A stretch of 49,110 nt of DNA from Reclinomonas americana ATCC 50394 (lineage: Eukaryota): positions 8,547 through 57,656 of the forward strand of contig PS015099.1 of assembly GCA_048213135.1 (NCBI GenBank), read 5' to 3'. Positions 7,288 to 45,114 of this stretch are shown here, one piece after another (position 1 is the first letter of the stretch; every line of letters starts with the position of its first letter). Under the pieces are notes generated by a model. That model was given only the letters and a program-made list of their open reading frames with translations, made no database searches and was not told the origin of the DNA. Position numbers and translations under genes: made by a program.

Positions 7288-7519
7288 GAGAGAGAAGAGG
7301 GAGAGAGAAAGAGAGGGAGAGAGAAGAGAGAGAAGTTGACTCTCGCTCTCCTCTGCACGCACACATACACACACACGTACACACCTCCTCACTCACAACC
7401 CTTGATGATCAGTCCTCCCACAAGAAGAGAGAGTGACGAAGAGGAAGACTGTTCTCCTCTCCCTCTCCCTCTCCCTCTCCTTCTCTCCCTCCTCTCCTGC
7501 TCACTCACATCTCCCCTTG

Positions 7520-10493: not shown

Positions 10494-10635
10494 GAGTCAT
10501 AAACGAGAGATGAGAAAGGCTGACATGATACCGGACATGAGTCACAAATCAGCAGTTTTCAACAAGGAGAGAGAGGGTGCAATCGCTGTGCTTGTGCTTG
10601 CAAACACACACACGCCCACACAGTGTGAGTGAGCA

Positions 10636-16600: not shown

Positions 16601-19600
16601 CGGCCATCAAGGCGTTTTGCAACCTGATGGACACTGGTTTGTGTTGACTCTCCTGTATGCACAGAGATTCTTGCACTGCTCATCACTCTCTACTCCATAC
16701 AGCGCCGCATGAAACCGCAGCCGCACTGCTGCACGAGCAGCCGATGATTGTGCGGTTCTTGCAAGGCTTATCGCCCGACACGGACTTGCCGCCCATGGCT
16801 GTGGTTCTGCACATGGTGTCCCTGGTGGTTGACTTTGGTTCGGTTGCTTTGCGACGGCTTGATCTGCGTTCATTTCTGTTGATCTGATGTGGTCGTCGCC
16901 ACCGCCTTGCAGACCCGTCGTGGTCGACCGAGTTATCGCAGGCGCAGATTGTGGAGAGAGCCGTGCACCTCGTGGCGGCGCTGTCGGATCTGCCAAGTGT
17001 ACTGCTCTTCAGCAGCAGCTCGCAGGTGACCAAGGGCGGACCCGACATCAAGTCACAGCTCGACGCACTGCAGCCGCCGTTTGTCGAGAGCCATGATGTT
17101 GAGTGGCTGCGGCTTGCTTGTCGATGCACTGCTGCTCATTTGGCGCGCCATCCGCACAGCTCGGTGGTCCCGACGACCACTTCAAGGGCGGCACTTTGTG
17201 CAATCGCGCACACTGTGTGCGCCGTGGGCTCCAGTTTGTGCTGGCCATCTGCAACGTCTCCGCCAACAGGGAGCTGGCACAGCGTGCACTGCGCCTCGGC
17301 TCGTTGAGTCTGCTGGCGTATCTGATGCGCTCGGCTGATGTGGACATTGCGCGCCGTGCCTTGGAGTGCACGCACGTGTTGATGTCGATAGGTACTTGCA
17401 TTTTTTCGTCGCTTCGTCATTATTCACCTTCGTTTCTCACTCGCTCCGTGAGTGTAGAAGGACCCGCGGCCGCCGGCGAGTTTGTGGAGGTGGCTGGTGT
17501 CGACCGCCTGGTGCAGTGGCTGGACGATGTTGATATGGCCGACGAGCAGCTGGTGGTGGAGATGATGAGTGTGCTGGTACAACTGAGCGCGCATGGTATG
17601 TCTGACAAGTTGCATCTCTCGTGCGTGCTTGGCGACTCACTCGCCCGCCAACACGCAGAGCGCATTCGATTGGACTTGTGGAATGCCACGTCGCGACAGC
17701 TTGGTGTGCGACTGATGACGGTGGCGGCCACGGCACAGGTCATTCGCAACATGGCCGTGGTGCAGCTGGCTCTCCAGTCGCTCGGAAACATGTTGGAATT
17801 GAGTTGCGAGTTTTTGTACGTGCAGTGTTGCGTGATGCAGATTGGAAGACTCATTCCGTTGGCAGAGGGCGACGGCGCGGACCTGATTGCCACAGTGCCA
17901 CCGCAAAGTATGGTCGAGTACGCTGTGCGGTGCGCGCTGGAGTACGGCTTTGCCAAGTCGGCCGCCACAGTGCTGGAGCGCCTTGGTCGCAGTGGTGCGT
18001 ATGCGTGCCTTTCTGCTGTTACACGGTAATTCTTCAAGCTCACAGTGCCTGCTGCAGTGGACTGCCACCGTGCAATGCTCGCTGGCGGTGCCGTGGAGGT
18101 GGCGGTGCAGGACTTGGCCAGTGCAGTCGATGAACTGAAAATCGCCGGCGCACACATCTTGGCCTTGCTGGCGCGCTCAGGTGCTCCTTGTTGGCTTCAT
18201 CCGACACCAATGTGACAACATTGGCACTGACTGTGTATGTGTAGATTGGACTCGGGAAACACTTGTGATGCGCCACCACGTGATTCGTATCGTGACCGCC
18301 AACGTGGACATGGACACCACCGGCCCGCTGCTCGATCACTCGTTGGAGCTGTTGCAGTCGCTGCTGTCCGACAGTTGCGCTCTCTGGATCTCATTCCCCC
18401 CTTCTGCGTAACTTTTTTTTAATTCCTAGTATATGCAGGTGTGTCGCTCGAGTGTTGTGTAATCGATGGCGTGTGCCACCTGCTTCAAAGTCTGCTGCTG
18501 CACCACTCGCGAGAGGATGCGCGGAGCACCGCCAAGCGTCTGATTGCCGATGTGTTCTGTGAAGGTGCACTCCTCCCCCTCTCTCAATGTCGCTCCCGTT
18601 TCTCACGCATTATTATTATCAGCCAATGTCGATGCACTGCGACACGCCTCCACGGCCGACAACTCAGTGTCGTTCTACATGACGATCATGAGCCAGCTGT
18701 CGAATCCGGCCGCTCGTTCGTGCGTTGCATCGGTGCTGCAGCACATGGCTTGCCATTCTTCGGGTCTGTGTGCGTGTGCGTGCAATGGCTCGTGAATGGA
18801 CTGTGTCTCACACAGACTGATTGTAGACAAGTCGCATGTTATTGACGCCATTCTGCGACACGGCGGCATGTCCATCCTGCTGGACAATGTGCACCCGGAC
18901 CGCCTGCACGCGAGTCTTGTGCTTCCAGTGACCAAGGTATGTGCCCACACACTCGGTATGGGTGTATGTAATGCTCATGATTCGGTGCGTGTTTGCTACT
19001 GCTTGCAGTCACCGGCATCGTCAATGTCGGCCTATGCGGTGGACCCGACGGCCGCCGATGCACGCCTCGTGCCATTCTGGGTGGAGCGGCAGAGTGGTCG
19101 GTTGATGTGCCTGCCGTGGGTGCGCGAGTTGTACCAGCACAATCGTGTCGGCGAGTCGTACATGGTGACGGTGCTGGAGGCGCTCGAGCGGTGCTGTGCC
19201 ACTGGTGCGTCGGCGGGTCACGGCACTGAGAAGTGATGTTTCTGTTAATATTTGTCGTCACAGAGGCCGGTCTGCGCGCACTCTGCGACGAGTCGTGCAC
19301 ACAAGTGCTGTTGGAGACACTGGCGGCGCACGAGGTCGGTGACATTCGACGTCGCCTGCTCACCCTGGTGGCCTGGTTGTCGCACACTGGTGAGGGGGTT
19401 TCGACATTTTTCTGTGTCGTACCACAGCAGCCTTCTCTCATTCGGGGCATGCAGACTCTCGCCACGCCCTGCGCGCCACTGTCCCTCTCTTGGCCTACAA
19501 CATGGGCCACGTGGACGACGTGCAGTCGGAGACGTGTCTGCTGGCCACGCGCATTCTGCTTACACTCAGCGCCGAGTGGGATGCGCCGACATCGGCACTC

Positions 19601-20607
19601 GTGTCGCCGTCGTGTCTGCGACGCGCTGTGGCCGTGCGCGACGATGCTGAATTGCAGTTTGACGCCGGCAGCCTGGCGTTGAAATGTGCACTGCTGGCTC
19701 CGTCGAGCAGCAGTGAGTGGGAAGAGTTGCTGGCGTTCTTGCGTGCCGGCGTGCCGGAAGGAGCGACTCGCGAGACGACGTACACCCTATTGGCGTTGCG
19801 ATCTGTGCTGCAGCGCCTGTCGGCACAGCGGGCGACTCACAAGGCTCGCGAATGTGCGTCACCTCGCGTGCCCCTCTGCGCGTGCAGTCTCAAAGCCGAC
19901 TCATTCGACATGTGATTTGTGTCTGCAGACGATGCGTGGACCCTCGGTCAGCGGCTGCGCAATGCGGTACTGCAACTGCAGGCCCGCTCGACCACCGTCG
20001 TGCCACACAGTCGCGAGTGGCACGAAAAGCGCGACGCGGTGCGCTCACTCGTGCGCCTGGTTGAATCGAAAGGTTTGCGTGCTTGTAGGGGGAAGAAAGC
20101 CACTCGCTTCCTCACTGATCGATCGCAGACGGCTGCGAGGTGCTGGTGCAATCGCAGCTGCCGGAGATGCTCATTGCAGTTGGCCTGATGGGTGTCTCGC
20201 CGGTGCACGGCAGCTGGTTCCAGCGTCGTACTCTGGAGGTGTTGTCGCATGTGGCGCGCCACGATGCTGGTACGTTGGTGGCGAGTGTCACTTGCGTGTC
20301 GAATGGCGAGCTGAATCGCTCCTTTCTTCCCCCCCGTGCAGACGCGCTGGCAGAGCGCATCTGTGCCACTGCTACCGACGTGCAACGCTTGGCGCAGGTC
20401 GCCGATGGTGACAGCGAGGTGGCTCCGTGGGCGGCCGAGACATTGGTGGCCTTGTGGCGCAATGGTTTCGTCGCTGATTGCCGGATGATGTGTTTACGTT
20501 TGGCGGACTCATCCTATTCTTTTCTACAAGCAGAGTCGGTGCGCGCCAGTGTGCGCGCCTCTGTCCCCGACTACGATTGGCCGTTCTTGCAGACAGTGAC
20601 AACATGA
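10636..20607 (+). CDS. very large armadillo/HEAT-repeat protein with N-terminal myristoylation motif (MGSTAS), ~38 introns
   Basis: ATG at 10636 gives MGSTASASAREKAERKRRKLALETS, donor at 10712. A continuous spliced frame runs from 11447 to TGA 20605-20607 with many ARM repeats (LLTSEQPSVQYHAARAMREFA, LRSREVAVQYRACDALATL, LLTSERASVRAEAARVLANL, LMRSADVDIARRALEC). Exon 1 and the 11447 exon differ in phase, so at least one exon is missing, probably in gap 10726-10804. Confidence 0.8.
10893..11345. repeat. ~190-bp degenerate tandem duplication in ARM-gene intron
   Basis: CCTCTGYAATCGAGGAGCGAGAGTGAT...GAGGCAGCTGTTC..GACTCTTGGATCYTGAGTTGCGAAAGAGAGAA...GCAGGATCATCCTTCRACA.TTGTGAACAGAGAACATGGGCG occurs at ~10902-11030 and ~11095-11240, with a third partial copy at ~11310-11340. 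Confidence 0.85.
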
Positions 20608-20738
20608 TCGCGGTGCGCCGGCCGGAGACTCGGGCCGACGCACACATCGGCTCGTTACATGCGTCGTCGTGAACCAGCGCACACGAAAGAGCAAGAGATA
20701 CGACACACACATACACACAATGTGCTCTTGCACTCAAC

Positions 20739-20744
20739 AATAAA
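20739..20744 (+). promoter_or_regulatory. candidate polyadenylation signal AATAAA of the ARM gene
   Basis: AATAAA lies ~130 nt after the stop at 20607, in the short convergent intergenic region before the Hsp70-like stop at 20756. Confidence 0.35.
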
Positions 20745-20755
20745 TAATGAGTGTA

Positions 20756-22101
20756 TTATTTCTTGGCATCCGCCTCCTCGTCGACAGTGGCCGGGCAGAA
20801 GCGCTCTGGGTGTGCCAGCACTTCTGGCGGCACCCCGCCAAACTCGCTGCATGAGAGCGGGGTGACAATGACTCTGTTCTCGCGCTCCGTGGCCACATCC
20901 TTGGCCGACAGCACCAGCTGGTGATTGGCGTCCACATCGAAAAGCAGTCGAATGCGAGGCTTGCCGGCAGGTGCCGGCGCAATCTCGGTGAGTGCAAAGA
21001 CGGCAAGCAGTCGGTTGTCGCGCGCCACGCGCTGCTCGCCCTCGTAGATGCGAAACAGGAGCACCGTCTGGTTGTCGACAGTGGTGGTCACCATCTGATC
21101 TCGTCGGTGAGGGATGGCGCGGTTGCGACCTATAACCACTTCCAGGTTGCCATTGGTCACTTCAAAGCCCAGCGCAAACGGCGAAACGTCGATGAAGAGA
21201 ATGTCTCGCGTGGCCTCCGAGCCGGTGCCGGTGAGAATGGCCGCCTGCGCCGCCGCACCGAAGGCCATGTCTTCCTCGGGGTTGGGGCTGTTGCAGAGCT
21301 TCTTGCCGTTGAAAAAGCGCTGCAGTTGCTCACGCAGCTTGGGCATGCGCGACGTGCCACCAATCAGCACCACCTCGGCGACCTGCTCCTTCCGCTGCCG
21401 ACTGTCGCGCAGAGCGCGTTCCACGAGGTCGACGCACGTGAGAATGCGCTCCTCGTTCATCGCGTTGAATGCCGCCGCGGTGATGGTGGTGTCGAGGTCG
21501 TGGCCCTCATGCTGCGCCCCGACTCGAATCGGCACGGCCTCCTCGAGGCTCGTCACACTGGAGAGTGCGCATTTGGCGCGTTCGCACGCCCGGCACAGGC
21601 GCCACATGGTCTCCATGTTGCCGCTCACATCGAGTTGGTGCGCACGCTGAAAGTTCTCCACCACGTGCCGCACCAGCCGGCGATCAAAGTCGGCGCCGCC
21701 CGCGTTGCGCGAGCTAGCCACTGCCAGCACCTCAAAGATGCCGTCGTCCACCAACACCAGCGACACATCGAAACTGCCGCCTCCGGCGTCCACCAGCAGC
21801 ACCAGCGTCTCCGGTCGCATGGCGTCCTTGTTGATGCGATAAAAGGCCAGTGTCGCCGCCACGGCCGACGGCACAATGCGAATGACCTGGACGCCCGCCC
21901 GCGCCGCCGCCTGATCAATGGCGAAGCGCTGTGCGGTGTTGCAGAGTCCCGTGGTGACGACCACGCGCATCAGCTGTCCGCGCAAGTGGCTCTCGGCGAC
22001 GCGCTTCAGGTACGCAAACTGCAGCGAGAGGAGGTCTTCCACCGAGTATCGCCGCATCTCGCCCTTGAAGAGGACCTCTACTTGCGGTTCGTCGGCGGAG
22101 C
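20756..22101 (-). CDS. divergent Hsp70-like protein, C-terminal exon (NBD remainder + SBD-beta, no lid/EEVD)
   Basis: Acceptor TTAG|GC at 22102/22101. Translation SADEPQVEVLFKGE...LLVDAGGGSFDVSLVLVDDGIFEV...GGADFDRRLV...EVVLIGGTSRMPKL...NPEEDMAFGAAAQAAILTG...IYEGEQRVARDNRLL...FDVDANHQL, ending VDEEADAKK*. Confidence 0.9.
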
Positions 22102-22104
22102 CTA

Positions 22105-22725
22105 ACGAGGGAAAGGTGAGGGAGGAGGTGAGGGGATAGAGGGACAGGAGGAGGAGAGGGGATAGAGAGGAAAGGAGGAGGAGAGGGGATAAAGAGGAAA
22201 GGAGGAGGAGGAGGAGGAGGAGGAGGAAGAAAAGAAGACAAGGAGAAGGCAGACGAGGAGGAAGAAGAGGAGGAAGAGGGAAAAGGAGAAGAAGAAGAAG
22301 AAGAAGAAGAAGAAGAAGAAGAAGGAGAAGAGGAAGAAGAAGAACAAGAAGAAAAAGAAAAGAAGAAGACGAACAAGAACAAGAACAAGAAGGAGAACGG
22401 GGAGAAGAAGAAGACAAAGAGAAGAGAAAGGAGGAGGAAGAGGTGGAGGAATAGAGAAGGAAGAGGAGGAGGAAAAGAGAAGGACAGAAAGAGAGGTGTG
22501 TGAAGGACTCACGGCAGTGAAGCGAGAGAAAGAGAACAATGGAAAAGGCAGACAAGATCACACCAGGCTCGACGACTACAGAGGAAACGACATGAAAGAG
22601 GAAAGGGAGAGGTGAGAGAAGCACTCAGCAGAGCAGAGCAGTGGAAGAGAAGTACGGAGAGACAAGATCGCACCACAAGAGAGAGAAGAACACAAAGAAA
22701 TGAGAGAAAAGAGGAGAAAAGGAAG

Positions 22726-22766
<41 letters not shown>

Positions 22767-22808
22767 CGAGCAGCAGCACTCACAGCAGAGCAGAGGTAGG
22801 GAGGGAGG
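22105..22808. repeat. purine-rich low-complexity intron (GGA/GAA/GA repeats) with degenerate copies of the upstream exon-donor junction
   Basis: (GAA)n, (GGA)n and (GA)n tracts. Minus-strand GGTGTGATCTTGTCTG (~22565) and GGTGCGATCTTGTCT (~22675) resemble the donor at 24266-24280. Confidence 0.75.
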
Positions 22809-23488
22809 NNNNNNNNNNNNNNNNNNNNNNNNNNNNNNNNNNNNNNNNNNNNNNNNNNNNNNNNNNNNNNNNNNNNNNNNNNNNNNNNNNNNNNNNNNNN
22901 NNNNNNNNNNNNNNNNNNNNNNNNNNNNNNNNNNNNNNNNNNNNNNNNNNNNNNNNNNNNNNNNNNNNNNNNNNNNNNNNNNNNNNNNNNNNNNNNNNNN
23001 NNNNNNNNNNNNNNNNNNNNNNNNNNNNNNNNNNNNNNNNNNNNNNNNNNNNNNNNNNNNNNNNNNNNNNNNNNNNNNNNNNNNNNNNNNNNNNNNNNNN
23101 NNNNNNNNNNNNNNNNNNNNNNNNNNNNNNNNNNNNNNNNNNNNNNNNNNNNNNNNNNNNNNNNNNNNNNNNNNNNNNNNNNNNNNNNNNNNNNNNNNNN
23201 NNNNNNNNNNNNNNNNNNNNNNNNNNNNNNNNNNNNNNNNNNNNNNNNNNNNNNNNNNNNNNNNNNNNNNNNNNNNNNNNNNNNNNNNNNNNNNNNNNNN
23301 NNNNNNNNNNNNNNNNNNNNNNNNNNNNNNNNNNNNNNNNNNNNNNNNNNNNNNNNNNNNNNNNNNNNNNNNNNNNNNNNNNNNNNNNNNNNNNNNNNNN
23401 NNNNNNNNNNNNNNNNNNNNNNNNNNNNNNNNNNNNNNNNNNNNNNNNNNNNNNNNNNNNNNNNNNNNNNNNNNNNNNNNNNNNNNNN

Positions 23489-23557
23489 CCGGCTGGTGGC
23501 GCACGTGCTGGTGGCCGCGGTGGAGCCGGTGGTCCGACGGTGGAGGAGGTCGACTAA
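23489..23557 (+). CDS. HSP70: C-terminal fragment of cytosolic Hsp70 (GGPTVEEVD*), on an apparently inverted contig
   Basis: PAGGARAGGRGGAGGPTVEEVD followed by TAA immediately after a gap. EEVD is the cytosolic Hsp70 C-terminal signature. Confidence 0.9.
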   Translation, partial: PAGGARAGGRGGAGGPTVEEVD

Positions 23558-23831
23558 GGGTGTGTAGGGCAGTAGTGGTAGTGAATGAAGTATGTGATGG
23601 TTTATTGTTTAGCACCGGCGAAGGGAGGAGGCATGGAAGGCAGATGAGACAAGCAGAACAACCAATGGAAAGAGTGGAGAGAAGCATAGACAAGAGCTCA
23701 AGCAATGGTATGGTTTGGCACAGACATGGAGGGAAAGTGGACGATAAGGGTGGATGGACAGCATGCATTACTCCGAGTCAAACAGGACATTAGGCTTGTT
23801 CGTCTTTTTTGCGTGAGCGAGAGAGAGAAGA

Positions 23832-24266
23832 ATGGACGAGTTCCGCGGGGCCATTGGCATCGACTTGGGCACCACACACGCCCGCCTGACAGTGTGGGTG
23901 AGTGTGGCAAAAGAGAGGACTCACTGTCTCTCTCTGTTTGTCTCACTCTTCTCCTCCACAGGATCTCAAGAACCAATCCGCACGTTTTCTTCCCGACGAG
24001 TACGGCAACAACTCCATTCCAATGGTGATTTCCTTCACGGAAGATGGCATTGTTGTCGGTCAAAAGGCATTGGAGGCCGCAGAGGAAAATCCACTAAACA
24101 CAGGTGCGCCTTTTTCTTCTTTTTTGTTCTCTAATGGACGACTTGTGTGCTGATTATAACAATGTGTGTGTTACAGTGCATAGTGTGCTTCGTTTGCTCG
24201 GTCGCTCGTTCTCCGATGTTGCCGTGCAGCAGCTCATGACTGCGTGGCAATTCTCCGTTGTTCCAG
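23832..24266 (+). CDS. divergent Hsp70-like protein, N-terminal three exons
   Basis: [100 protein letters not shown]|. The first two intron positions match the canonical Hsp70, and the phase-1 end fits the exon starting at 22101 on the minus strand. Confidence 0.85.
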
Positions 24267-24336
24267 GTGCGATCTTGTCTGTCTTTTCTCTTCCCTCCTC
24301 CTCCTCCACTCTGCTCTGCTGTGAGTGCTGCTGCTG

Positions 24337-24378
<42 letters not shown>

Positions 24379-25105
24379 CTCTCTNNNNNNNNNNNNNNNN
24401 NNNNNNNNNNNNNNNNNNNNNNNNNNNNNNNNNNNNNNNNNNNNNNNNNNNNNNNNNNNNNNNNNNNNNNNNNNNNNNNNNNNNNNNNNNNNNNNNNNNN
24501 NNNNNNNNNNNNNNNNNNNNNNNNNNNNNNNNNNNNNNNNNNNNNNNNNNNNNNNNNNNNNNNNNNNNNNNNNNNNNNNNNNNNNNNNNNNNNNNNNNNN
24601 NNNNNNNNNNNNNNNNNNNNNNNNNNNNNNNNNNNNNNNNNNNNNNNNNNNNNNNNNNNNNNNNNNNNNNNNNNNNNNNNNNNNNNNNNNNNNNNNNNNN
24701 NNNNNNNNNNNNNNNNNNNNNNNNNNNNNNNNNNNNNNNNNNNNNNNNNNNNNNNNNNNNNNNNNNNNNNNNNNNNNNNNNNNNNNNNNNNNNNNNNNNN
24801 NNNNNNNNNNNNNNNNNNNNNNNNNNNNNNNNNNNNNNNNNNNNNNNNNNNNNNNNNNNNNNNNNNNNNNNNNNNNNNNNNNNNNNNNNNNNNNNNNNNN
24901 NNNNNNNNNNNNNNNNNNNNNNNNNNNNNNNNNNNNNNNNNNNNNNNNNNNNNNNNNNNNNNNNNNNNNNNNNNNNNNNNNNNNNNNNNNNNNNNNNNNN
25001 NNNNNNNNNNNNNNNNNNNNNNNNNNNNNNNNNNNNNNNNNNNNNNNNNNNNNNNNNNNNNNNNNNNNNNNNNNNNNNNNNNNNNNNNNNNNNNNNNNNN
25101 NNNNN

Positions 25106-26429
25106 GGAGGCCCTTGGTGGCGTCCGAGCCCGTGCCGGTCAGAATGGCGGCCTGCACGGCCGCACCGTACGCCACAGCCTCGTCGGGGTTGATGCTCTTG
25201 CACAACTCCTTGCCGTTGAAGAAGTTGCGCAGGAGCTCCTGCACCTTGGGGATGCGGGTCGAGCCGCCGACCAGCACCACCTCGTGCACCTCGCCCTTGC
25301 TCAGCTTCGAGTCGCGCAGCACCTTCTCCACCGGCTCGATGCACTTGCGGAAGAGGTCGGCGTTGAGCTCCTCGAAGCGGGCGCGGGTGATGGACGAGTT
25401 GAGGTCGACGCCTTCGTACAGCGCCTCGACGTGCACCGGCGTCTGGTGCTGGGCCGACAGGGCGCGCTTGGCGCGCTCGCAGGCCGTGCGCAGACGGCGA
25501 ATGGCACGCGGGTTGTTGGTGATGTCGAGCTTGTGCTTGCGCTTGAACTCCTCCACAAAGTGATTCACCATGCGGTTGTCGAAGTCCTCGCCACCCAAGT
25601 GAGTGTCGCCGGCCGTGGCCTTGACCTCGAACACGCCCTCGTCCAGCGTCAGCAGCGACACATCGAAAGTGCCGCCGCCCAAATCGAAAATGAGCACATT
25701 GTGCTCGCCCTGCATCGACGCCTGCTTGTCGAGGCCGTACGCAATGGCGGCGGCCGTCGGCTCGTTAATGATACGCAGCACCTCCAGTCCAGCAATCTGC
25801 CCGGCATCCTTGGTGGCCGTGCGTTGTGAGTCGTTGAAGTAGGCCGGCACCGTGACCACGGCCTTGGTGACCTTCTTGCCGAGGTACGACTCAGCCGTCT
25901 CCTTCATCTTGGTCAGCACCATGGCCGAGATCTCCTCGGCCGCGAATTGCTTCTCCTCGCCCTTGTAAATCACTTGAATCATGGGCTTGTCGTTCGGGCC
26001 CTGCACGACGCTGAACGGCCACAGCGCCTTGTCGGCCTGCACCGTCGGGTCGCTGAACTTGCGGCCAATCAGGCGCTTGGCGTCGAAAACTGCACGGGCA
26101 AAGAGGGAGGGTCAGTATTCAAATGGGCTCGAGAAAGAGATAATGAGGACGCAACTTGTGTTGAGCGGGTTCATTGCCGCGTGGTTCTTGGCGGCATCGC
26201 CAATCAGGCGCTCCGTGTCAGTGAAGCTGACGTATGAGGGTGTGGTGCGGTTGCCTTGGTCATTGGCAATAATGCTGACTTGGTTGTTCTCCTGCGCATG
26301 GAAGTGGTGGTGATGAGGAGGAGGAGGAAGAGGAGAGAGGAGAGATCAATGATGTGAACTTACCCACACGCCCACGCATGAGTACGTCGTACCCAGATCG
26401 ATGCCGATTGCTCCGTTGTAGGTGGCCAT
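25106..26429 (-). CDS. HSP70: cytosolic heat shock protein 70 (3' part in gap/inverted contig)
   Basis: Exons 26429-26364, 26291-26156 and 26089-25106: [43 protein letters not shown]...[15 protein letters not shown]...[11 protein letters not shown]...[14 protein letters not shown]...[12 protein letters not shown]...[11 protein letters not shown]...[11 protein letters not shown]. Confidence 0.97.
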
Positions 26430-27022
26430 TTGTTGTTGTTGATGCGATGTTGTCTCTGGATCGGAGGGAAAGTGAGCGATGAGGGATAGAGGGAGGGGCA
26501 AGAGTGATGAAGACTCACAGTTGTTAGAAGAAAGTTGAGGCGATCTGCGCTCGCGGAAAGAGAAGAAAAAGTACGATGACGAAAGCACCAGATCGACCAG
26601 ACTTTTTGTCGGAACCCGGCAAGCTTTTTCGCTGCAATCGGACGGGGGTCGGCAGCACCAGCCGACCGACCCCCGCCCGCAAGTGGACCCTGTCGGATCC
26701 AGGCAGGGTCGATGGCGCCTCCCTCCCTCCCTTCCATGATCACGGAGGAGGAGAAAGACTGTAATGACGTCAGCGCACCAAAGATGCGCGACATCGTCCA
26801 AAAAAAGCGCACTCGCTGACGCAAGCAACTTGTGACGCAATCACCAAATCGTCGTGTCGAAAAGTCATCGGAGGTTCGGGCCAACACACCACACCAACGG
26901 CACCCCAACTGCCGCGGTGGGTCGTGGGGGGGTCGTCCAGGGGGAGCTACAATGCAGTCACAATTTTTAGATACAGGAAAACTGTCGAAACTGCCAGAAA
27001 CGGACACACCTCTCCCCCGCGA

Positions 27023-30000
27023 TCAACCCCTGCCGCCCGTGTCCAGCGATCGCAACGCCGTGATGCGGAGCGAGTGCTGTGCACGTGGAGGCATGCGCGC
27101 CACACGATACTTGGGTCGGGCTGCTCCTCCGCCACCCGCCGACGACTCCGAACCCGCTGGCAACGGCGGCGGCGGTGCCGGCACCATGTTACGCACGGCG
27201 GCCGCTGCCTTGCTCTGGTAGTACTCGCCCGTCATGTCGAGAGATTGCAAATGGCCACCGCCACGCACACCCGACGTGCCCAGCGACGGTCGCATGGCCG
27301 CGAGGTACGCCTGCCGTTCAAAGTCGCCGGGACTCGGTGGCCGCGGCGACATGGATGGCGGCGGCGGCGGAAGCGGATCGACGCGCGGCAATGCGTGTCG
27401 CGGCGTGCCACTTGTGGCGTACTGTGGCAGCGTCGGCGATGGGGCACTGAACGCCACACTGACCTCGTTGACGGCACACGCCAGCGATCCGCGCGGCGTC
27501 TTGAGTTGCGGCAACGTCAACGGCGGCACGGTGGCGGTGGCCGCGGCGGTGGCGGTAAAAGCAGAAGCCTTGGCGGCTCGTGTGGGCGTCATGAGCAAGG
27601 ACGGCGGCGCGGTGGGCGGGTGAGGGGCGGCGGAGGCATACGGAGGTGACGAAATGTCGGTGACCGCCAGTACCGGCGACAGGCGCTGGCCGGCGGTCGA
27701 CGACGAACCACTGGTGACCATGGGGCAGAAGAACGGGAAGCGGTCGACGTCGTGAATGTTGGTGTTGTCCACCTCGTCGGGAATGCCCTGGTGCGCGGAG
27801 AGAGAGACTTTAGTGACAGGAGAAGACTGTCGCGAAGATGTGATGGAAGCGCACCTCCATGAGGTCGCGGTGCAGCCGGGCCGACAGCACGGCAATGTAG
27901 CGCAGCCAGTCTTGTGATGATTCGCCTGCGCGACGTGTCAGGAGAGGGAGAAGGGGAAGGGGAGAGAGGGGGGAGAGAGAGGGGGAAGGAGAAGGAGANN
28001 NNNNNNNNNNNNNNNNNNGAGAAGGGGAAAGGAGAAGAGGAAGGCGGAGGAGAAGGGGAAAGGAGAAGGGGAAGGGGAAGGGGAAGGGGGAAGGTGAAGC
28101 GGGAAGGAGAACGGAAGGAAACACGGATGAACAAGTAAACAGCCACAGTTGACGCACAGAGAGAGAGAAGAGCGAAAAGAGGAAAGTGGGATGAGAAAGA
28201 GAGAAAAAAGATGGGCGATAGTGAGAGAGAAATGAGATGAGAAAGCCAATTTCGGAACACACCTTGCGTGGCGGCCAGCTTGGCGGCACGATCCAGGAAG
28301 AGCGCATGCATCTTTTGCGTAACCTTTTCGACAAGCTGCTGTGCGCGCTCCTGAATGCGTCGAAACACGTCCGGATCGCTGCTTCTGTGCGTCAAGTTAG
28401 ACAAGGAAAAAAACAACTGTAGCAAACAAAGGCATCGCGCGCAACTCCCACGACCGCAGCCGATCTGTCGGTGCGCTATCGGCAAACGTGACAGCGGCTG
28501 ATCGTCGCCGCGTGCCCGTGGCGCGTGTGCTGCTGGGCGACTCGACCGCAGCCGGCAGTGGCGCCGGCTTCTCACTGCCGAGCCACCGATTGAACTCGTC
28601 CTCGATATTGCGCTCCATCTGCTTCATCGCCGTCTCGTGCAGCAGCTGCTGTTGTGCGAGCTGTGCTTGCGCTGCCACAGGTGGGGCGACGAGGCCCGAG
28701 GCCCGGGACTCAGCGGCGGCGGCGGCGGCGGCTGCTGCAGCAGCAGCGGCCTTGGCTTCCGAGGCAGCTGCCGTGGCCGAGGCGGCCTTGGCTTCGGCGG
28801 TACGGTAGCGGTTCTGCACCTCGATCAACTGCGCCTTGAGTAGCACGGTCTCAGCCAGCTCGGCGGTCTTGTCGCGCAGTCGGTTCTTTGCAGGTCACGC
28901 ACACAGCAAGTCGGTCAAACAGTCAACAAGGAGAAGTGAGCTAAACAAAGAGAGTCGCACCTGCAGATCCACCATGTCGTCGGTCTGCTTGCGGAACCGT
29001 GCCTCGGCGTCGGCCAGCAACTGCACCAGCTTGCGATGCTCGTCGTGTTCGGCGTCGACGGCGTGCTCGAGTTGCTCGTTGCGCGCCTTCAACTTTTCCA
29101 TTTCGGCCAGCATCGCAGCCGCTCCACTGTCGACAAAGCTCTCCAATTCGGTATTGCGCTTCGTCAGCTGCTGCATGCGTGCCTCCTGTGTGGCCAGCTG
29201 CTTCTCGTAGGTGGCACGCACCACACGCTTCGCCTCGCGCACCTCGTCCTGCGTGTACAGACGCCTCTTGGCCGTGTCGGCCGGACCATCCTGCAGCAGC
29301 GACTCGGGCACCAACTGTCGCAGACGAATTGTCTCCTTCAACAGTTCCTCTCGCGAGGAGTTGTAAAAGGAGGTGCGGTGCTCCATCTGTCGAGAGAGGT
29401 CCGCCAATTGCGTCGCCATCTCCTGATTCTCCAGCCGCAATCGTCGCACCTCAACGTCCAGACACTGCTCGCGCCACAACCACGGTCGAGAGGTCTGCAC
29501 CGACGGCTGCGGTACAGCAGCAGCAGCAGCAGCAGGAGCAGAGGCAGCGGAGGGCGATAGTAGCTGGGGAGGCGGAGGAGGAGCAGCAGCTGTGGGTGTC
29601 CTGGGTGACAGCATGTCCCCTGCAGCAGCAACGTCCTCCACCGCTTCGTCCACGACGGGAACCGGCTGCACAATCATGTCCACCACCGTGTCGCGATGAT
29701 GCACCACGAGCTGCGACGCTCGCTGCAACACCGTCTCCAACTCCTCAAACAGCGACAACACCGTCTCCGACACACTCTCGTCGCCAAACACCGGCCCCGT
29801 CACCTGCTGCCACTGCGACGACGGCAAATCGCTGCCCAGAGCCTCCCACAACTGCTGCTCCACAGTGCGATCGACAGGCGGCGGCACAGGCGTCTCCACC
29901 TCGTACGCCTGCAACACTCGCAATCGCTCGCACTCCAGCGTGTCCACCGTGCTGCGCAGCTGTGGAACCACATCCTGTGCCAACCACGATCGCACGGCTT

Positions 30001-30024
30001 TTACCAGTAGTCGCACCATGGAGA
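27023..30024 (-). CDS. uncharacterised coiled-coil protein with Pro/Ala-rich disordered regions (5' exons unresolved)
   Basis: The spliced frame runs across four introns from the acceptor at 30025 to the stop at 27023. Heptad-rich segments (VRRLRLENQEMATQLADLSRQME, LAEMEKLKARNEQLEHAV). No recognisable catalytic domain. Confidence 0.65.
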
Positions 30025-30335
30025 CTGCGGGGGGTGGTGGTGGTGGGGCGGGGGGTTGTGGAGGGGGAGGTGGTGGTGGATGAGGAGGTTGTGGAAGGTG
30101 AGCAGTGGTGGTTCGTGAGGCGGTTGTCGGGCTGGAGGGAATGGCGATCGGTCGTGGCCTGGAGAGAGGGAGGGAGAGGAGGGAGAGTGAGGGGGAAGGG
30201 AGACGACGGAAAGTGAGTGTGGGGTGAAGGGAAGGAGCGACGGGGAAGGAGAAGGGAGGGAGAAGGGAGGAGGAGGAGGAGGAGGAGGAGCAATGTGCAC
30301 ATGAGAAGGGTCGGGCTCAAGAGATTGGAGTGGGA

Positions 30336-30399
<64 letters not shown>

Positions 30400-30571
30400 A
30401 CGCATGTGAGAGGAGGAAGGACAGGATGATGTAGTTAGAAGTAGAAAACGCAGCTGGTAGAACGAACGTGGAGGTGTCGTGTCGTACGTACCGTACACTC
30501 CNNNNNNNNNNNNNNNNNNNNNNNNNNNNNNNNNNNNNNNNNNNNNNNNNNNNNNNNNNNNNNNCGCCGCG

Positions 30572-30605
30572 TCGTACGTACGTACGTACGTACGTACGTA
30601 CGTAC

Positions 30606-30660
<55 letters not shown>
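30572..30660. repeat. (TACG)n self-complementary microsatellite followed by (GA)n
   Basis: GTACGTACGTAC... at ~30574-30608, then a long GA tract. A degenerate TACG tract also occurs at ~35441-35475. Confidence 0.9.
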
Positions 30661-30663
<3 letters not shown>

Positions 30664-31486
30664 TGAGTGAATGACAGACGAAACGCATCAACGTGGCGTT
30701 GTCTATCATTCACACACACACACTCACTCTCTCACACACACTCTCTCTCTCACTCACCAACTCAGAGGATCCTTTGAGTGCGCAGAGACAGGGCGTGCGC
30801 GATTCGCCGACGACGAAGGCGTCTTTTCACTTTCATCATTGTCGACACTCCCCGACGTGTCAATCACAAAGTCGACCACGGCCACTGTCGCGCGTCGATG
30901 TCGATGTCGACGGTGCTCCAGAGCACGTGACATGAGAGCACAGACGACACGCACTCTGCTCCGAAGTGCACAACGCGTGTGATCACTGTATACACAGTGT
31001 GTTCTACAGAAACCGCAACAAGACCAATTCATTCACCAACAAACTTCTTGATGACCAAGTTCAACCGTATCCAAAACATCAACACAGACACCAATCTTGA
31101 GGCAGCAGCAGGTTCCTTTTGTGTGTGTGTTCGCTCTCGGAGCTCCGAACAAGTCGAGAACTGCGTTTGACCAGTGGATTTGACGCACTTGCATAGACGC
31201 ATAGCGTTTTCTGCGATCGTACACGGCACATCGAATTCGGGAAAAGGCCATAAGCCAGGCAAACAAAGCAAAGCCGGGTCCGGATCCGTGAAGCAAGCAA
31301 AGCAAAAACAGTGGAGGTGGCTGGTTGCGTGAAAGCAGAGCCAGTGTCAGCAGTTACTGCCGTGCAGAGATGACGCGAACACAGGCACCCACGTGTGCCG
31401 CCCAAATGACAAGATCATGCCGCCTATATGTCTTTCCTCACTCTTTATTCACTTTCTCCCACCCCACCCACCCCTTTAGTGCCACT

Positions 31487-32677
31487 CTACACCGCCTCAT
31501 TCCCCGGCCCCTCCACTTCGGTGGCATCAAACGACGACGACGAGCGGCGACGAGTACGCTCGCGTGAGGTGTCGCGCAACTTGCGCAGGCGATCGCGCAT
31601 CGAGTCGAGCGTGGCCGTGGCCTCGGCCGTGTTGTCCGCCAGCTTGGTCGAGCTCTGGCTAATGGCGCCACGTACGCTATCCTCCAGAGCATCCCACTTC
31701 TTGCTGCGCGCGGCGTCATCATCGCCGTCGGTGCCATTGGTGCCAGTGGTGGCGGCAGCAGCGGGTGGCGGCGCATCGGCAGTCAGATCGGTGGCATTGG
31801 CGGTCTTGATCTGCTGCTGCTTGCCGCTGCGCAGGCGTGCGGCCAGGCGCTTGGCCTCGGCCAGTGCTTCCTCGCGCTTGCCCGTCGCCGGTCCCTTCGG
31901 TGACTTCGGGGCCGCGGCTGCGGCGGCAGCAACAGGTGCAGGCGACGACGATGCGGCGGCGACCGGCGAAGACAGTGTCGCCGCAGTCGCCGGCTTGGTA
32001 GGTACGGGGAGACGCGACTGTCGCGAAGCCGATCGTGGTGTGCCACTGTTCGCCGAGGGGGAGGCGCCCGTTGGCGACGGCGGCACCGCATCCAAACACG
32101 TCGACACCACCGTCGACAGTCGCTTCAGCGCCTGCTCAAATCGCTGCGCAGGCGATGGTGCAGCAGCCTGCGGAGAGGTGAGGTCCACTGCCGCTGCTGT
32201 CGGCTCCTCCAACTCCAGCTGCAGCTTGCTCACATCGACGCCCTTGCGCGTCAACTCGCTCGTCACACGCGACTCGAGCGACGCCGCCACTTGCTCCAAC
32301 GCACACACAGCACTCGAGTACTCGTCTCCGCCACTACCCGCGGCACCAGTCGTGCTCTGAGCGCTCTCTTTGTGAGCAACAATGTGATACGAGGGAAGAG
32401 GAGAGTCAGATCGATCTCACCTCATCGGCTTCCGCGAGCCTCGCCGCCCACCGCTGCTTGGTGTTTGCGTGCCGCTCTGCGTGTGACGTCAGCGTGCACC
32501 TCAGCTTGCCCATCTCCTGTGACCACAGAAGAGTGCGTGAGCAAAAAACAAACAAACAACAAAGATCCAAATATCGCGAGCATGACACACCTCACTCAAG
32601 AACGACACACGACTCTGCAGCGACTGCAACAGCGTCGTCGACGACAACGGACTACTCACAGCTTCCTCCTCACTCAT
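31487..32677 (-). CDS. uncharacterised protein, paralogue A of head-to-head pair (2 introns)
   Basis: MSEEEAVSSPLSSTTLLQSLQSRVSFLSE|EMGKLRCTLTSHAERHANTKQRWAARLAEADE|STTG...KREEALAEAKRLAARLR...GPGNEAV*. Confidence 0.8.
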
Positions 32678-32801
32678 CGCACACACAACAAAACAACACA
32701 AGCAAGTGCGAAACTGAGCTCCACCCAAAAAATCGGTTTCTCCGGGCGGTTTTTTTCCACAAGACTAATAATTGATAGACACACACACACACGCGTAAGC
32801 C
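32678..32801. promoter_or_regulatory. putative bidirectional promoter (124 bp)
   Basis: Lies between the divergent ATGs at 32677(-) and 32802(+). Contains AAAATCGGTT-N8-CGGTTT at 32729-32752. Confidence 0.55.
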
Positions 32802-33853
32802 ATGAGCAACACTTGTGACGATGGCACTCTGTTGGGCTCACTGCAGGAGCGAGTGGGCACGCTGGGCGAGGTCAGTGAATCCTCACACACACACACACAC
32901 ACACACACTTGCGCTCACACACTCACACACAGTCAATGGATCGCCTTCGCGCCACTCTGTCAACACACGCGGCCTCACACGCGGCCTCACGCGAGAGATG
33001 GGCGCATCGACTGGAGGCACTGGGATCGCCCATGTCATCGCCCTCGCCCTCCGTGACCGCGATCGCGCCCAGCATCGCGCTCGGATGGGAGTCTCAGATG
33101 CGACAGGCGCTGGAGAGCAAGGGCTACGGCGCCGAGTTGCCACCTCCACTGGAGGAGGACGATGACAATGAGGAGGTCGTCGCGCGCGTCGATGCCCTGC
33201 TCAGCATGTGTGTGCAGCTGTTGCCTGCTCAGTCGCAGTCATCGCCACCGCAGCCGGCGCCGGTCGCCGCGCGTCGCATCGCACCGGCTGCTAGTGCGAC
33301 TACGCCGGCAGTGGCGCCACCTCCGGCAGCAAAGACGGCGCGACCGGCATCTGCAAAGACGACGACGTCGACGACAGCGCCCAAGCCGTCATCGCTGAAG
33401 CCGACGCTCAAGTCGCCGCCGGCCAGCAAGCTGCCATCGGCTCCGGCGGCCAAGTCGCCCACAACAACGACGACAACGACGACGACTCCAAAGGCAGCGG
33501 CAGCACCCAAGTCGCCGAGCTCGACTGCCAAGCCGGCGGTGCCCAAGTCGCCGTCGTCGTCGTCCACTGCGACACCAGCGCCGGCCAAGACGCTGGCTGG
33601 TGGCGCGCGCAACAAGAGCGCTGCGGGCAGCAGCAAGCTGGCGGCACCCTCGGCGGTGACGACGGTGGTGACGGAGCCGCAGTCGCCGGCGGAGAGCGAG
33701 CAGTTGCCGACGACGCCGAAGAATCCGGCCACGCCCAACGGGAAGCGGCAGGAGGCCATTGCTGAGGCGCGCAAGCTGGCGGAGCGGTTGCGCAGGGCGT
33801 CGGTCGATGCTACGTCGGCCGGCAGTGGCGAGCAGGCGTCGGAGGCGGTGTGA
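32802..33853 (+). CDS. uncharacterised protein, paralogue B of head-to-head pair (1 intron)
   Basis: MSNTCDDGTLLGSLQERVGTLGE|SMDRLRATLSTHAASHAASRERWAHRL...(Lys/Ser/Pro-rich, several KSP)...KRQEAIAEARKLAERLR...QASEAV*. Confidence 0.82.
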
Positions 33854-33970
33854 ATCGGAATGAGTGCCGACTGAAAAATGCCTATCCCCCCCACACGCAC
33901 TAATCTCTTTTTCTCTGTGTTGATTTTGATGATGTTATTTTGTTGCTGTTGTTATTATACTGAGCGAGTA

Positions 33971-35583
33971 TTATGAGGAAGGCGTGGGGGACGAGGGGTC
34001 CTTTTTGACGAGACGGTAGATGGCTGACTCCTGGAACTTGCGCGTCTGAATGTCGCCCTCCTCGCTAAAGACCATGTAGTGCTCGTCGCCAATCGCAAAG
34101 TACTCCACGTCGGTGGCGCCCACGGTGTCGAACCGCTGGTGTACACGGAAGCGACGAATGGTCGGCTCGTACACGTAGACGGTGGAGCGCGCGTGATATC
34201 GCTTCCCGTGTCGGTCGCCAAACTCGGCCACCGCCAGGAACTGGAAGCCGGCCGCGGAGAAGAACTCGGCGGCGTGCGCTCCATCGGTGCCCATTTCTTG
34301 CACCAGCGAGAAGTCGTCGGTGGCCGGGCTGTATGAGTACAGTTGCGAGGCAATGTGCGGCGTGTTGTCGTCGCGATCGTTGCTGGGAATAGGGGGAGAT
34401 GAGAAACGCGACATGGAGAACAACAAAGCAGAAAGAAAGAAGCCTCCTCGCCCCTTCCCTTCTCCTCCACCCTTTTACCCTTCTCCTCCACCCTTTTGCC
34501 CTTCCCCTTCCCCGTGCCCTTCTCCCCACCCTTTCCCTTCCCCTCACCTAAAGAACACGAAATGCTCGTTGAACATGTGGAACGCTTCCGCATCGTGCGC
34601 CCCGGTCGTCGGCACCGACTGACGCGGCACAAACTGGTGCCGCGAGAAGTCAAACTCCCACATCACCGACGGCGTGTGCCAGCCTGACTGCCGCGAGTGG
34701 TACGCGGCAGCGGCGAGGAACACGCGGTGCGGGCCAACCAGCGACACAGCCATGCTGGCCACGCCGGGCACGACCAGCTGCTGGAACGGCTTGAAGGGCG
34801 GCTCGCTGCCCGTGGCCTCCGGATCGAAGCGGAACACGGCAAGACGCGACGCAAAGTTCTCCGCCACCGCCAGATACAGATCGTCGTCAATGTAAAAGGC
34901 CTCCAGCTGGCCAGCACCGTCCGACACAATCACCTGCGATCGAGCCTCGTGCTGTGAGCAGAGCAAGAGAGAGAGAGAGGAAGAGAAGAAGATCGCCGCT
35001 GACCTGTCGCTCCACAAACTGCGTGCCATCGTGCTCATACACCACCGACGTTTTGCCGTAGTAGTTGGGCACGGCGAGGAAGTGTCGCAGCTTCTCGCCC
35101 TTCTTGCCCGTCGCCGTCGGATAACAAAAGGCCTCCCAGCCGTGCGCTCCAATGGTGGTCAGATGCTGAATGCCCTCCAGTGAGAGACCTCCATGTGGCG
35201 CACTCTCGACGCGGAAGATCACCGACGAGGCAGCCATGTTGGGGCCTAGGTGTGTGAAAGGGACAGAGGGTGTGAGAGGGAGAGAGAGAGAGGCAAAGAG
35301 TAACAGGTTCGTCGTCATTCTTGTTCCTCTTCTTCTTCTCCTCCTCCTCCTCCTCCTCCTCATCCTTCTTCTTCTTTTTCTCCTCCTCCTCCTCCTAGTC
35401 ATCCTTCTTCTTCTTCTTCTTCTTCGTCGTCGTCTTCTGTCGTACGTACGGTACGTCGTACGTACGTACTACGGTACGACACTACGACACACGACACTAC
35501 GTCTACTCGTACTACACTACCACTACCTACTACCAACGNNNNNNNNNNNNNNNNNNNNNNNNNNNNNNNNNNNNNNNNNNNNN

Positions 35584-35645
<62 letters not shown>

Positions 35646-35665
35646 TCGTCGTCTCGTCTCTCGTC

Positions 35666-35718
<53 letters not shown>

Positions 35719-35774
35719 CCTCCTCCTCCTCCTCCTCTCTCTCTCTCTCTCTCTCTCTCTTCTTCTTCTTCTTC

Positions 35775-35811
<37 letters not shown>

Positions 35812-36135
35812 CTCAACTGACTCCATCCCAAAAGTTTGCCACTGCCAGAAAGTTTCCCAAGCCCTCGATGCTGAAGAACTCCCAGCCGGCCGCTCCCTGC
35901 GTTGGCACAGTGCCGATCTTGACCCACTCAAGCTCAATGGCAGAGCCGACCACTGTGGAGGACAACTGTGCCGAGAGAGAGTGTGTGTGAGAGAAGGGGA
36001 GAGAGTGTGTGAGAGAGAGAGAGCACGCACTGCGTCTGTGAGTCCGCCTGCGTTGTCCAGGAGATGCGCATGTGTCACTGCACAGGTACATGCCAGCAGG
36101 AGGAGGAGAACGAGAAGAGCAGATCGCTGTTGCAT
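33971..36135 (-). CDS. secreted EPTP/EAR-repeat (LGI/TSPEAR-type beta-propeller) protein, 4 introns
   Basis: Signal peptide MQQRSALLVLLLLLACTCAVTHA. Repeated motif: PTQGAAGWEFFSIEGLGNFLAVAN, TTIGAHGWEAF..HFLAVPN, GAGQLEAFYIDDDLYLAVAE, PTTGAHDAEAF, TDGAHAAEFFSAAGFQFLAVAE, TVGATDVEYFAIGDEHYMVFS. Confidence 0.82.
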
Positions 36136-36187
36136 GCGCGCGGAAAAACGAAGGAAGAATACTGCTTCTTTCGCGCCAAAACCATTG

Positions 36188-38459: not shown

Positions 38460-39261
38460 GCGTGTGTCGACAATCAATGTTCGGTCGACAAATCGATCGG
38501 GTTGTCAAACGCAAGACGCAAGATCTGCACTTGCCAGCAGGAACGCTGGGAGGTGGACGAGGATCCGACCGAGCAGCAAAAAGTTGCAGCACGCTCGTAT
38601 CTTGCAATTGAGAAACAGGATTTTCCCATTGTCGCGACCTCGAATTCGAAGCACGAGGGCCGCCAAGGCTGCTGACCTGTTTCCCGATTCAGCCACGACC
38701 CCCAACTCCCCCCGGGTTCAGCTTTTCGCCCACCTCAACTGCAACACAGCAACAAATATCGATACTGTACATCGATTCGAACCCAGCATTTGACGAGAGG
38801 ATCGCTGCCAGCGGCGGCATCCTCGCACTCCACTTGTCTAGATCTCCTCGTTCTCCCCTTCTATGCATCACCATGGCAAGCAGTGATCCTCTGCGCACCA
38901 TGATCGCAAGGAAGATCCTCCACTTCAAAAAGATCCTCACATCCGCCGCCACTCGCAATTGACGCCGCGCTCGACACGGCGGTCGTCGCACGCTGCGCCA
39001 CCGACTAGTTGATGCGTGCAATCAGATGCTTGCAGCGTGCGGTGCAGCGGTCGACCAGGGGTGTGTGTCGGGCAGGCTGCAGCGGGCGGTGCGCACTCGA
39101 GCGAATGAATTCGAATTCCGCGTGTTCAAAATCAATCCTCTGACGGAAAATCTCGATATCAGACAACCCTCCTTCCCCACCCACTTTCGCTTTATCTGCG
39201 GAGCAAAGACCACCGCCTCCCTCTCTACCGCTCTATCGCTTCATTGCTCTCTCTCTCTCTC

Positions 39262-43937: not shown

Positions 43938-44187
43938 AAGACAGAAGATCATCAAACCTGTTCTTCAACAACAGTTTCTTCATTTTTCTTGCGTCCTCCT
44001 CTCCAACCACACACCAGTCGTCTTACTTTGGCAACACACAAGCACACACGCACACACACACAAGTATTCATGGGCATGCAATACTGTGGCGTGCAGTGCA
44101 ATGGTGACAAAGAGACTGGCGCGGCCGCGAAAACAATAATGATAGGCACACACACGGGCATGGGCATTGGGCATATTATGGGGCGTG

Positions 44188-45078: not shown

Positions 45079-45114
<36 letters not shown>

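Follow-up and report, generated by a model that had tools for sequence, protein, structure and literature searches.

The DNA analyzed here is a 49,110-nucleotide (nt) stretch of contig PS015099.1 from Reclinomonas americana ATCC 50394 (positions 8,547 to 57,656), referred to throughout as the window. It holds about ten genes, and our subject is the second intron of one of them, a canonical Hsp70 gene, together with the class of 5' splice sites (donors) to which the start of that intron, GTTGCGT, belongs. The window is eukaryotic in character, with a GC content of ~58 to 62% outside its eight runs of N, and it is dense in short introns, about one for every 100 to 300 nt of coding sequence. The work was done on the sequence alone, and all the donor statistics were drawn from within this 49-kb stretch. 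In what follows a slash outside parentheses marks an exon-intron boundary, class B denotes the donors H/GTTGCGT (H being any base except G), and class C denotes the GTG donors. The coordinates of the features are collected in Table 1.

The canonical Hsp70 gene and its divergent paralogue

The canonical gene, an Hsp70 of cytosolic type with similarity to Hsp70s all along the nucleotide-binding domain, can be followed through three exons and has lost its C-terminal third to a run of N. Exon 3 is 77 to 87% identical to other Hsp70s, with E values down to 0; plant proteins are the best of its named matches, at 77 to 79%, and the closest sequences overall are P0028 (87%) and P0032 (82%). For intron 1 we used the boundary set by homology, the gene-finder call for its donor being off by 6 nt. 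A metagenome scan with exon 3 returned 79 loci; identity was 79% at most, and no close relative was among them. None of the 65 of these loci that contain FDAKRL has an intron at the position of intron 2, all 65 being uninterrupted there.

Intron 2 begins GTTGCGTCC and ends CCCGTGCAG. A branch-like CTGAC occupies 26115-26111, which places the branch A 22 nt before the 3' end, and reading into a retained intron would reach an in-frame TGA (within TACTGAC). Once the intron is removed, the junction reads AAC ACA A/../TT TTC GAC GCC AAG, or N-T-I-F-D-A-K, and the spliced N-terminal sequence needs no gap when aligned with seven homologues, of which the two nearest, P0028 and P0032, also carry NTIFDAK and the five plant-like sequences carry NTVFDAK. 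A preliminary description of the locus had the intron starting at the G of GTTGCGT and running from 26155 to 26090, and this proves exact, the junction being fixed by Hsp70 conservation. Its argument that a TT donor would cause a frameshift is likewise borne out from the sequence, as cutting at AG/TT with the acceptor unchanged puts the reading out of frame. A further alternative, which lay outside that account, moves both splice sites by one base; here the frame is kept, and it is homology rather than frame that rules the alternative out, as the codon becomes one for Ser and none of the seven aligned homologues has Ser at this place (each has Ile or Val). Because the donor-only shift breaks the frame and the double shift gives Ser, the GT-AG boundary is the only one that fits. 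The U2-type features that can be examined in a sequence are present (GT and AG ends, a branch-like YTNAY 15 to 40 nt upstream, and a restored frame), and intron 2 is, judging by these signals, an ordinary GT-AG intron of the major spliceosome.

Once joined, the divergent Hsp70 comes to 547 residues, and it matches the canonical copy at 45% identity (177/394). The pair shares two introns in the same alignment columns, one at residue 22 and in phase 0 in both copies, the other in phase 1 and at residue 67 in one copy versus residue 69 in the other. Intron 2 of the two copies is homologous. The preliminary description had identified the intron at 24104, reading AAC ACA G/GTGCGC, as the counterpart of the GTTGCGT intron, and it does occupy the same column and phase. 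The codon split by this shared intron is ATT (Ile) with A/GTTGCGT in the canonical gene and GTG (Val) with G/GTGCGC in the divergent gene.

Exons 1 to 3 of the divergent gene lie on an 896-base-pair (bp) piece, 23489-24384, which is bounded by two runs of N; the last exon lies on the other strand. The end of this piece on the plus strand (~24296-24384) is nearly identical to the minus-strand sequence 22808-22720, and because of this match we take the piece to be inverted. It is most likely a contig that was turned around in scaffolding, at a long (CT)n-rich intron, and with the inversion undone the two Hsp70 genes would stand in tandem, both on the minus strand. The intron in question, intron 3, can be traced at 22102-22808 on the minus strand and at 24267-24384 on the plus strand; it is at least ~700 nt long and consists nearly entirely of low-complexity repeats of the CT, CTC, and TCC types, unlike the other introns of the window, which are ~66 nt long. 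The last exon finds its best database match at just 43% identity, and, when the alignment of the two copies is inspected by eye, the stretches corresponding to PAYFND and NEPTAA, motifs that the canonical copy conserves, are altered and an EEVD-type end is absent. From its sequence the protein looks like a lineage-specific Hsp70-like protein, possibly impaired as an ATPase.

Donor class and the last exon base

On the plus strand there are 47 copies of the hexamer GTTGCG and one of GTAAGT; on the minus strand there are 18 and three. The full heptamer, GTTGCGT, is present 29 times, compared with 10.66 ± 3.37 in dinucleotide shuffles, an enrichment of ~2.7-fold, and 0 of 100 shuffles reached 29. 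Most copies are followed by a pyrimidine-rich stretch of 55 to 90 nt, a CT[CG]A[CT] motif, and CAG. Of the 29, 24 lie at intron starts (22 of them predicted, the other 2 placed by eye), and G precedes none of these 24. A crude pattern test, which asked for a hexamer, a loose branch motif, and AG, also ranked GTTGCG at the top (28/65), but its background rate was 26%.

Introns were predicted with a gene finder run in two passes. The first, a self-trained Viterbi search with periodic coding and intron composition models, admitted only GT..AG introns and had no donor model; its leading donor hexamers (n = 147) were GTTGCG (16), GTGCGT (9), GTTTGT (7), and GTTCGT (5). The second added acceptor and branch matrices and a donor model that sees positions +3 to +8 and never the exon. 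It predicted 152 introns, from which we kept the 98 that were no longer than 130 nt and had a positive coding score on both flanks. Among these 98, G stands at -1 in 1 of the 22 introns with GTTGCG donors versus 61 of the remaining 76 (Fisher p = 7.8e-11), the latter made up of 20 of 26 with other GTT donors, 32 of 39 with GTG donors, and 9 of 11 with GT[AC] donors. The -1 base of the 22 GTTGCG donors is T in 10, A in 7, C in 4, and G in 1. Seen from the side of the exon, a last base other than G precedes 36 introns, of which 21 start with GTTGCG, and the other donors found at such exon ends include GTTGAG (2) and GTTGTG (1), which are GTGAG and GTGTG displaced by one base. Codons for His, Asn, and Asp never end in G, and 5 of the 10 GTTGCG donors in phase 0 come after one of them.

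The donors of the window are distinctive in other positions as well. The +3 base of the 98 introns is T 48 times, G 39 times, A 7 times, and C 4 times, a distribution that is unusual for a eukaryote. Of the ~29 donors that begin GTTG, 22 have GCG (a hand count), and in class C the +4 base is C in 16 and A in 15. Entamoeba-like donors, G/GTTTGT and G/GTTCGT, are common in the window, and the median intron length is 66 nt.

An independent anchor is provided by the EGF-repeat gene, a large EGF/teneurin-like gene with one intron after every half-repeat. Its exons of 75, 99, and 60 nt are strictly modular, and nearly all its introns are in phase 0; all frames close, and the Cys residues are regularly spaced only with the boundaries chosen. 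Twelve of its introns lie at one position, one residue past the last Cys of the repeat. Seven of the twelve come after AGC, AAT, AGT, AAC, GAT, GAT, and TCT, and six of these begin GTTGCGT, the seventh being T/GTTCGT; the other five come after TCG or GAG and read G/GTTCGT, GTGAGT, GTTTGT (twice), and GTGCGA. GTTGCGT is therefore used in 6 of 7 introns with a non-G last base versus 0 of 5 with G (Fisher p = 0.015). At the nine introns that close the other half-repeat, the preceding Gly codon is GGG seven times and GGA twice. Among paralogous introns of this gene, donor class switches with the last exon base, as it does in the Hsp70 pair. When the count is confined to introns fixed by homology or repeat structure, those of the two Hsp70s and the EGF gene, G is found at -1 in 0 of 7 GTTGCG introns versus 17 of 20 others (p = 1.4e-4).

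The contrast within the Hsp70 pair, which the preliminary description had presented as a change from Ile (A..) to Val (G..) going along with loss of the extra T, agrees with these counts for the window (1/22 versus 61/76, and 0/24). The same description had called the pair the best internal control for the donor rule. It is one clean instance but a single data point, and the twelve EGF-gene introns serve better as a control.

It might be held that there is no special rule at all, with GTTGCGT being one of many tolerated donors and the link between -1 and +3 an artefact of sampling or prediction. The donors are indeed diverse, as the spread of bases at +3 shows, most of the introns are predictions, and the counts come in clusters from a few genes. 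Such an artefact would not be expected to enrich the heptamer over shuffles, to survive in a model blind to the exon, or to persist in the subset fixed by homology and repeats, and we consider this account very improbable. Class B is a common second donor class, amounting to about a fifth to a quarter of the introns in the window (~22% of those predicted). That it replaces the usual G/GU(G/U/A)NG(U/C) donor where the last exon base is not G appears statistically solid within the window, and we infer that the same relation between -1 and the donor extends genome-wide.

Table 1. Positions of the Hsp70 and EGF-repeat gene features and of GTTGCGT intron starts in the window
Feature	Position	Strand	Description
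Canonical Hsp70 exon 1 (cytosolic type)	26364..26429	-	ATG at 26429; N-terminus alignable to homologues
Canonical Hsp70 intron 1	26292..26363	-	72 nt, phase 0, G/GTAAGT...GCAG; junction GVW/E set by alignment
Canonical Hsp70 exon 2	26156..26291	-	136 nt
Canonical Hsp70 intron 2 (studied feature)	26090..26155	-	66 nt, phase 1, A/GTTGCGT...CTGAC...GTGCAG/TT
Canonical Hsp70 exon 3	25106..26089	-	328 open codons, ended by the run of N at 24385-25105
Divergent Hsp70 exons 1-3	23832..24266	+	ATG at 23832
Divergent Hsp70 intron 1	23898-23961	+	G/GTGAGT, 64 nt, phase 0
Divergent Hsp70 intron 2	24104-24176	+	AAC ACA G/GTGCGCC, 73 nt, phase 1
Divergent Hsp70 intron 3 donor	24267	+	G/GTGCGAT
Divergent Hsp70 last exon	20756..22101	-	448 codons plus stop; Pfam HSP70 (PF00012), E = 5.9e-101
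EGF-repeat gene	40072..43497	+	Pfam EGF matches; modular exons
GTTGCGT donors of the EGF-repeat gene	40131, 41343, 42187, 42461, 43040, 43301	+	after AGC, AAT, AAC, GAT, GAT, TCT
Further GTTGCGT intron starts (within 1743..47877)	1743, 2525, 5393, 7666, 8352, 9411, 9600, 9827	+	
Further GTTGCGT intron starts, continued	12906, 13294, 13609, 16428, 39698, 47871	+	
Further GTTGCGT intron starts	46701, 46586, 36639	-	

Splicing machinery and the register of U1

U12-type introns are marked by an RTATCCTT-type donor and an TCCTTAAC-type branch near the 3' end. A rigid 7-nt donor with no preference for G at -1 recalls such introns, and class B could be imagined as the product of a separate splicing system, either a minor-type spliceosome or a mobile introner family that brings its own donor. 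GTTGCGT is unlike the U12-type donor consensus, however, and neither in branch nor in acceptor do the class B introns stand apart from the rest of those in the window. The branch motifs CTCAC, CTCAT, and CTGAC (consensus CT[CG]A[CT], not CTAAC) occur in like shares across the donor classes, the median distance from branch to acceptor is 16 in class B versus 16 to 20.5 elsewhere, and the class B acceptor is CAG in 22 of 24. Median length (67.5 nt versus 64 to 70 nt) and GC content (0.54 versus 0.52 to 0.53) are also those of the other classes. Both donor classes carry the same 3' signals. As to an introner family, a blastn comparison of the interiors of 27 class B introns (word 7, E <= 0.01) gave no non-self matches, and the interiors share no similarity beyond the splice signals. 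On these grounds we regard a separate system of either kind as scarcely credible. A scan of the window against Rfam at gathering thresholds gave no matches and no small nuclear RNA (snRNA).

How one machinery might come to use both donor classes is suggested by their common core. G/GUGCGU and H/GUUGCGU share the 7-mer G-(G/U)-UGCGU, in which the GU starts at the second base in the former and at the first base in the latter. We propose, at about an even chance, that class B is recognized by U1 in a register shifted by +1. The U1 snRNA would pair identically with the 7-mer of either class; in class B the +1 G of the intron would occupy the pairing place that the -1 G of the exon has in ordinary donors, and later steps involving U6, U5, and Prp8 would set the cut at the GU, which here begins one base nearer the 5' end of the motif. 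Which donor class an intron carries would be decided by coding constraint at the final base of the exon, as may be illustrated by Ile ATT versus Val GTG in the Hsp70 pair and by the Asn, Asp, and Ser (AGY) codons in the EGF gene.

A shifted register calls for a consensus displaced by one base, with a +1 G standing for the -1 G, and for no need of G at -1, and both are what we find. Under this proposal G at -1 would not be needed in class B because the +1 G of the intron fills its pairing place, and GTTGAG would turn up at non-G exon ends because it is the displaced form of GTGAG in the shifted register. With a U1 of the ACGUAC type, GUGCGU would pair at every position, and the stricter adherence of class B to GCG would then be in keeping with a weaker register in which none of the remaining pairs can be spared.

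In the main alternative the extra base is accommodated by a bulge. In that case U1, and later U6, would pair in the normal register with one U, at +2 or +3, looped out, and the cut would keep its usual place relative to U1. GUUGCGU is simply GUGCGU plus one U, a bulge at +3 (or +2) defines an accepted class of human donors (Tan et al. 2016, PMC4856993, Figure 1C legend), and, going by the pairing scheme given by Roy & Bowser, a bulge would keep +6G and +7U facing the positions of the U6 ACAGA that are normally opposite +5G and +6U. The difficulty lies on the exon side. A bulge leaves the last exon base facing C9 of U1, and we disfavor this register because it predicts a kept preference for G at -1, contrary to the counts of 1 in 22 and 0 in 24. 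It would also cost a bulge without gaining a pair, which leaves the choice of this donor at non-G exon ends unexplained. We judge the bulged register unlikely.

A second way of keeping U1 in place would be to change U1 itself. If a co-evolved or variant U1, or one encoded by a second U1 gene, had a 5' end directly complementary to GUUGCGU, class B would be the canonical donor for that U1, and the G/GUNNGU sites would be the ones that need an extra exon G. Lineage-specific changes in the 5' end of U1 that match atypical donors are reported in the available portion of Roy & Bowser (10.1101/2022.06.08.495308), and class B is in fact more uniform than class C, with T at +7 in 18 of 22 compared with T at +6 in 24 of 39. 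Such a U1 would have to have gained a base within a highly conserved stretch, however, and by itself it would leave the avoidance of G at -1 unexplained; we think this explanation, too, improbable.

Several considerations weigh against recognition in a shifted register and against too strict a form of the rule beneath it. By simple counting, with either the canonical or the ACGUAC U1, the shifted helix amounts to five pairs, a mismatch, and one pair, and GUGCGU without a G at -1 gives six contiguous pairs. Since the shifted helix is not obviously better, pairing energy alone fails to explain the use of class B at non-G ends, and better pairing in the shifted register would hold only on the assumption of a standard or ACGUAC-type U1. 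An exact shift would also lead one to expect at -1 of class B the A-rich composition found at -2 of ordinary donors; the T10, A7, C4, and G1 observed fit this weakly, and the composition at -1 and -2 resembles that at -2 and -3 of ordinary donors no more than loosely. The rule is strong and not absolute, in that 15 of 76 ordinary donors come after a base other than G, and the EGF gene contributes A/GTGCGT, A/GTGAGT, and T/GTTCGT as exceptions. Finally, the sample is ~ten genes, several of the class B introns come from two large genes so that the counts are not independent, and all introns other than those fixed by homology are predictions.

Taking these points into account, we find the combined reading, in which Hsp70 intron 2 is an ordinary GT-AG intron with a donor of a second class that is recognized in a shifted register, rather probable. 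A bolder version is conceivable, although we lean against it: the shifted donor may be a regular second class of 5' splice site, used by about a quarter of the introns of this genome, with the last exon base, and through it the protein code, dictating which class each intron carries. If that were true, this would be the first genome with shifted U1 pairing as a mainstream mode of intron recognition, and it would offer a natural system in which U1 marks the 7-mer while the GU sets the cut.

Neighboring features, significance, and relation to known systems

Pfam searches of 14 long open reading frames and 31 predicted exons of the window yielded only WD40, ARM/HEAT, EGF, EPTP, and Hsp70. A 210-residue ARM-like exon has a single protein match, at 47% identity, and the Atlas yielded no clusters other than those of ARM type. 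The EPTP matches (E = 1.5e-13 and 4.9e-6) fall in exons at 33871-34951 on the minus strand; the EPTP domain is mostly known from animal proteins. Beside the run of N at 10726-10804, the segment 10960-11260 on the plus strand contains two copies, ~190 bp apart, that share a segment of ~100 nt, and both begin ...GGATC(T/C)TGAGTTGCGAAAGAGAGAA and continue in near-identical sequence. These copies, which lie upstream of a large ARM/HEAT-repeat gene, could be a tandem duplication or an artefact of assembly.

What looks novel here is the donor rule, the Hsp70 intron itself looking ordinary, and the rule has consequences of several kinds. In annotation, about one intron in five of this genome will be mis-scored where a gene finder relies on one donor matrix, and our own model misplaced several before it had learned the class. 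If the rule holds genome-wide, it would supply hundreds or thousands of natural paired donor comparisons of the kind seen in the Hsp70 pair and the EGF repeats, and these would bear on the long-standing question of how far the cleavage site is fixed by U1 pairing and how far by U6, U5, and Prp8. From the point of view of evolution, the rule connects the form that a splice signal takes with a protein-coding constraint, the one acting on the final exon base, and it predicts that amino acid changes at exon ends will be accompanied by a one-base insertion or deletion in the intron.

Among the literature matches listed, there was no description of a further donor class with a one-base displacement that accounts for a fifth to a quarter of introns and is selected by the last exon base. 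The nearest parallel is found in humans, where shifted-register sites are rare and atypical. Class B, in contrast, makes up ~22% of the predicted introns of the window, is built on a GUGCGU-type rather than a GUAAGU consensus, and corresponds almost one-to-one with the identity of the last exon base, its U1 register being one that we infer. In the human sites all the pairs between the 5' splice site and U1 are moved by one position (Roca & Krainer 2009, as cited in the available part of PMC4856993), and cleavage can be set later by U6 instead of by the U1 register (Tan et al. 2016, PMC4856993, same part). The likeness to class B lies in the layout, a GU, one extra base, and then a consensus displaced by one, with the cut at the GU; the test oligonucleotide that Tan et al. 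describe there, ACA/GUCAAGUAU, also has a base other than G before the cut. Bulge (+2/+3) sites, as they are presented in the portions at hand of PMC4856993 (citing Roca et al. 2012) and PMC9311317, resemble class B in having one extra nucleotide relative to the consensus, and differ in that they keep exon position -1 opposite C9 of U1, whereas class B avoids a G there.

Atypical donors of a whole genome provide a second comparison. According to the accessible sections of Roy & Bowser (10.1101/2022.06.08.495308), Entamoeba has GUUUGU donors with a U1 of ACAAAC, Mastigamoeba has GUGCGC donors with a U1 of ACGUAC, the Mamiellales have GYGCGY donors, and Thecamonas has C at +4. The window resembles Entamoeba and Mastigamoeba in its atypical +3 and +4 bases, being rich in G/GUUUGU, GUUCGU, and G/GUGCG(U/C), with U at +3 in 48 of 98. 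Those genomes, however, are described with one consensus each, and the same sections describe neither a register-shifted second class nor a dependence on -1; moreover, the +6 base of class C is mostly U (24/39), unlike the C of Mastigamoeba. Mastigamoeba, which has a GC content of 60.7% besides its GUGCGC donors, was considered as the source of the window and set aside, both because of this +6 base and because the proteins of the window seem to be missing from the protein collection. Like the Mamiellales (e.g., Ostreococcus), the window combines donors of the GTGCG type with short introns and a GC-rich genome, and it too has branches of the CTGAC type. It is unlike them in that its introns are dense and its branch motifs are mostly CTCAC or CTCAT, and its canonical Hsp70 is only 77 to 79% identical to plant and green-algal Hsp70s.

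A final parallel concerns the division of labor between the two sides of the splice site. Parker et al. (PMC10581693, in the part available) divide U2-type 5' splice sites into two major classes, across which the interaction potential of the exon side (with U5) and that of the intron side (with U6) are anti-correlated. The donors of the window follow the same pattern, in that a weak exon side, with no G at -1, is paired with a distinctive and more constrained intron side. The classes as set out there differ in strength within one register, whereas the window shows a one-base displacement on the intron side.

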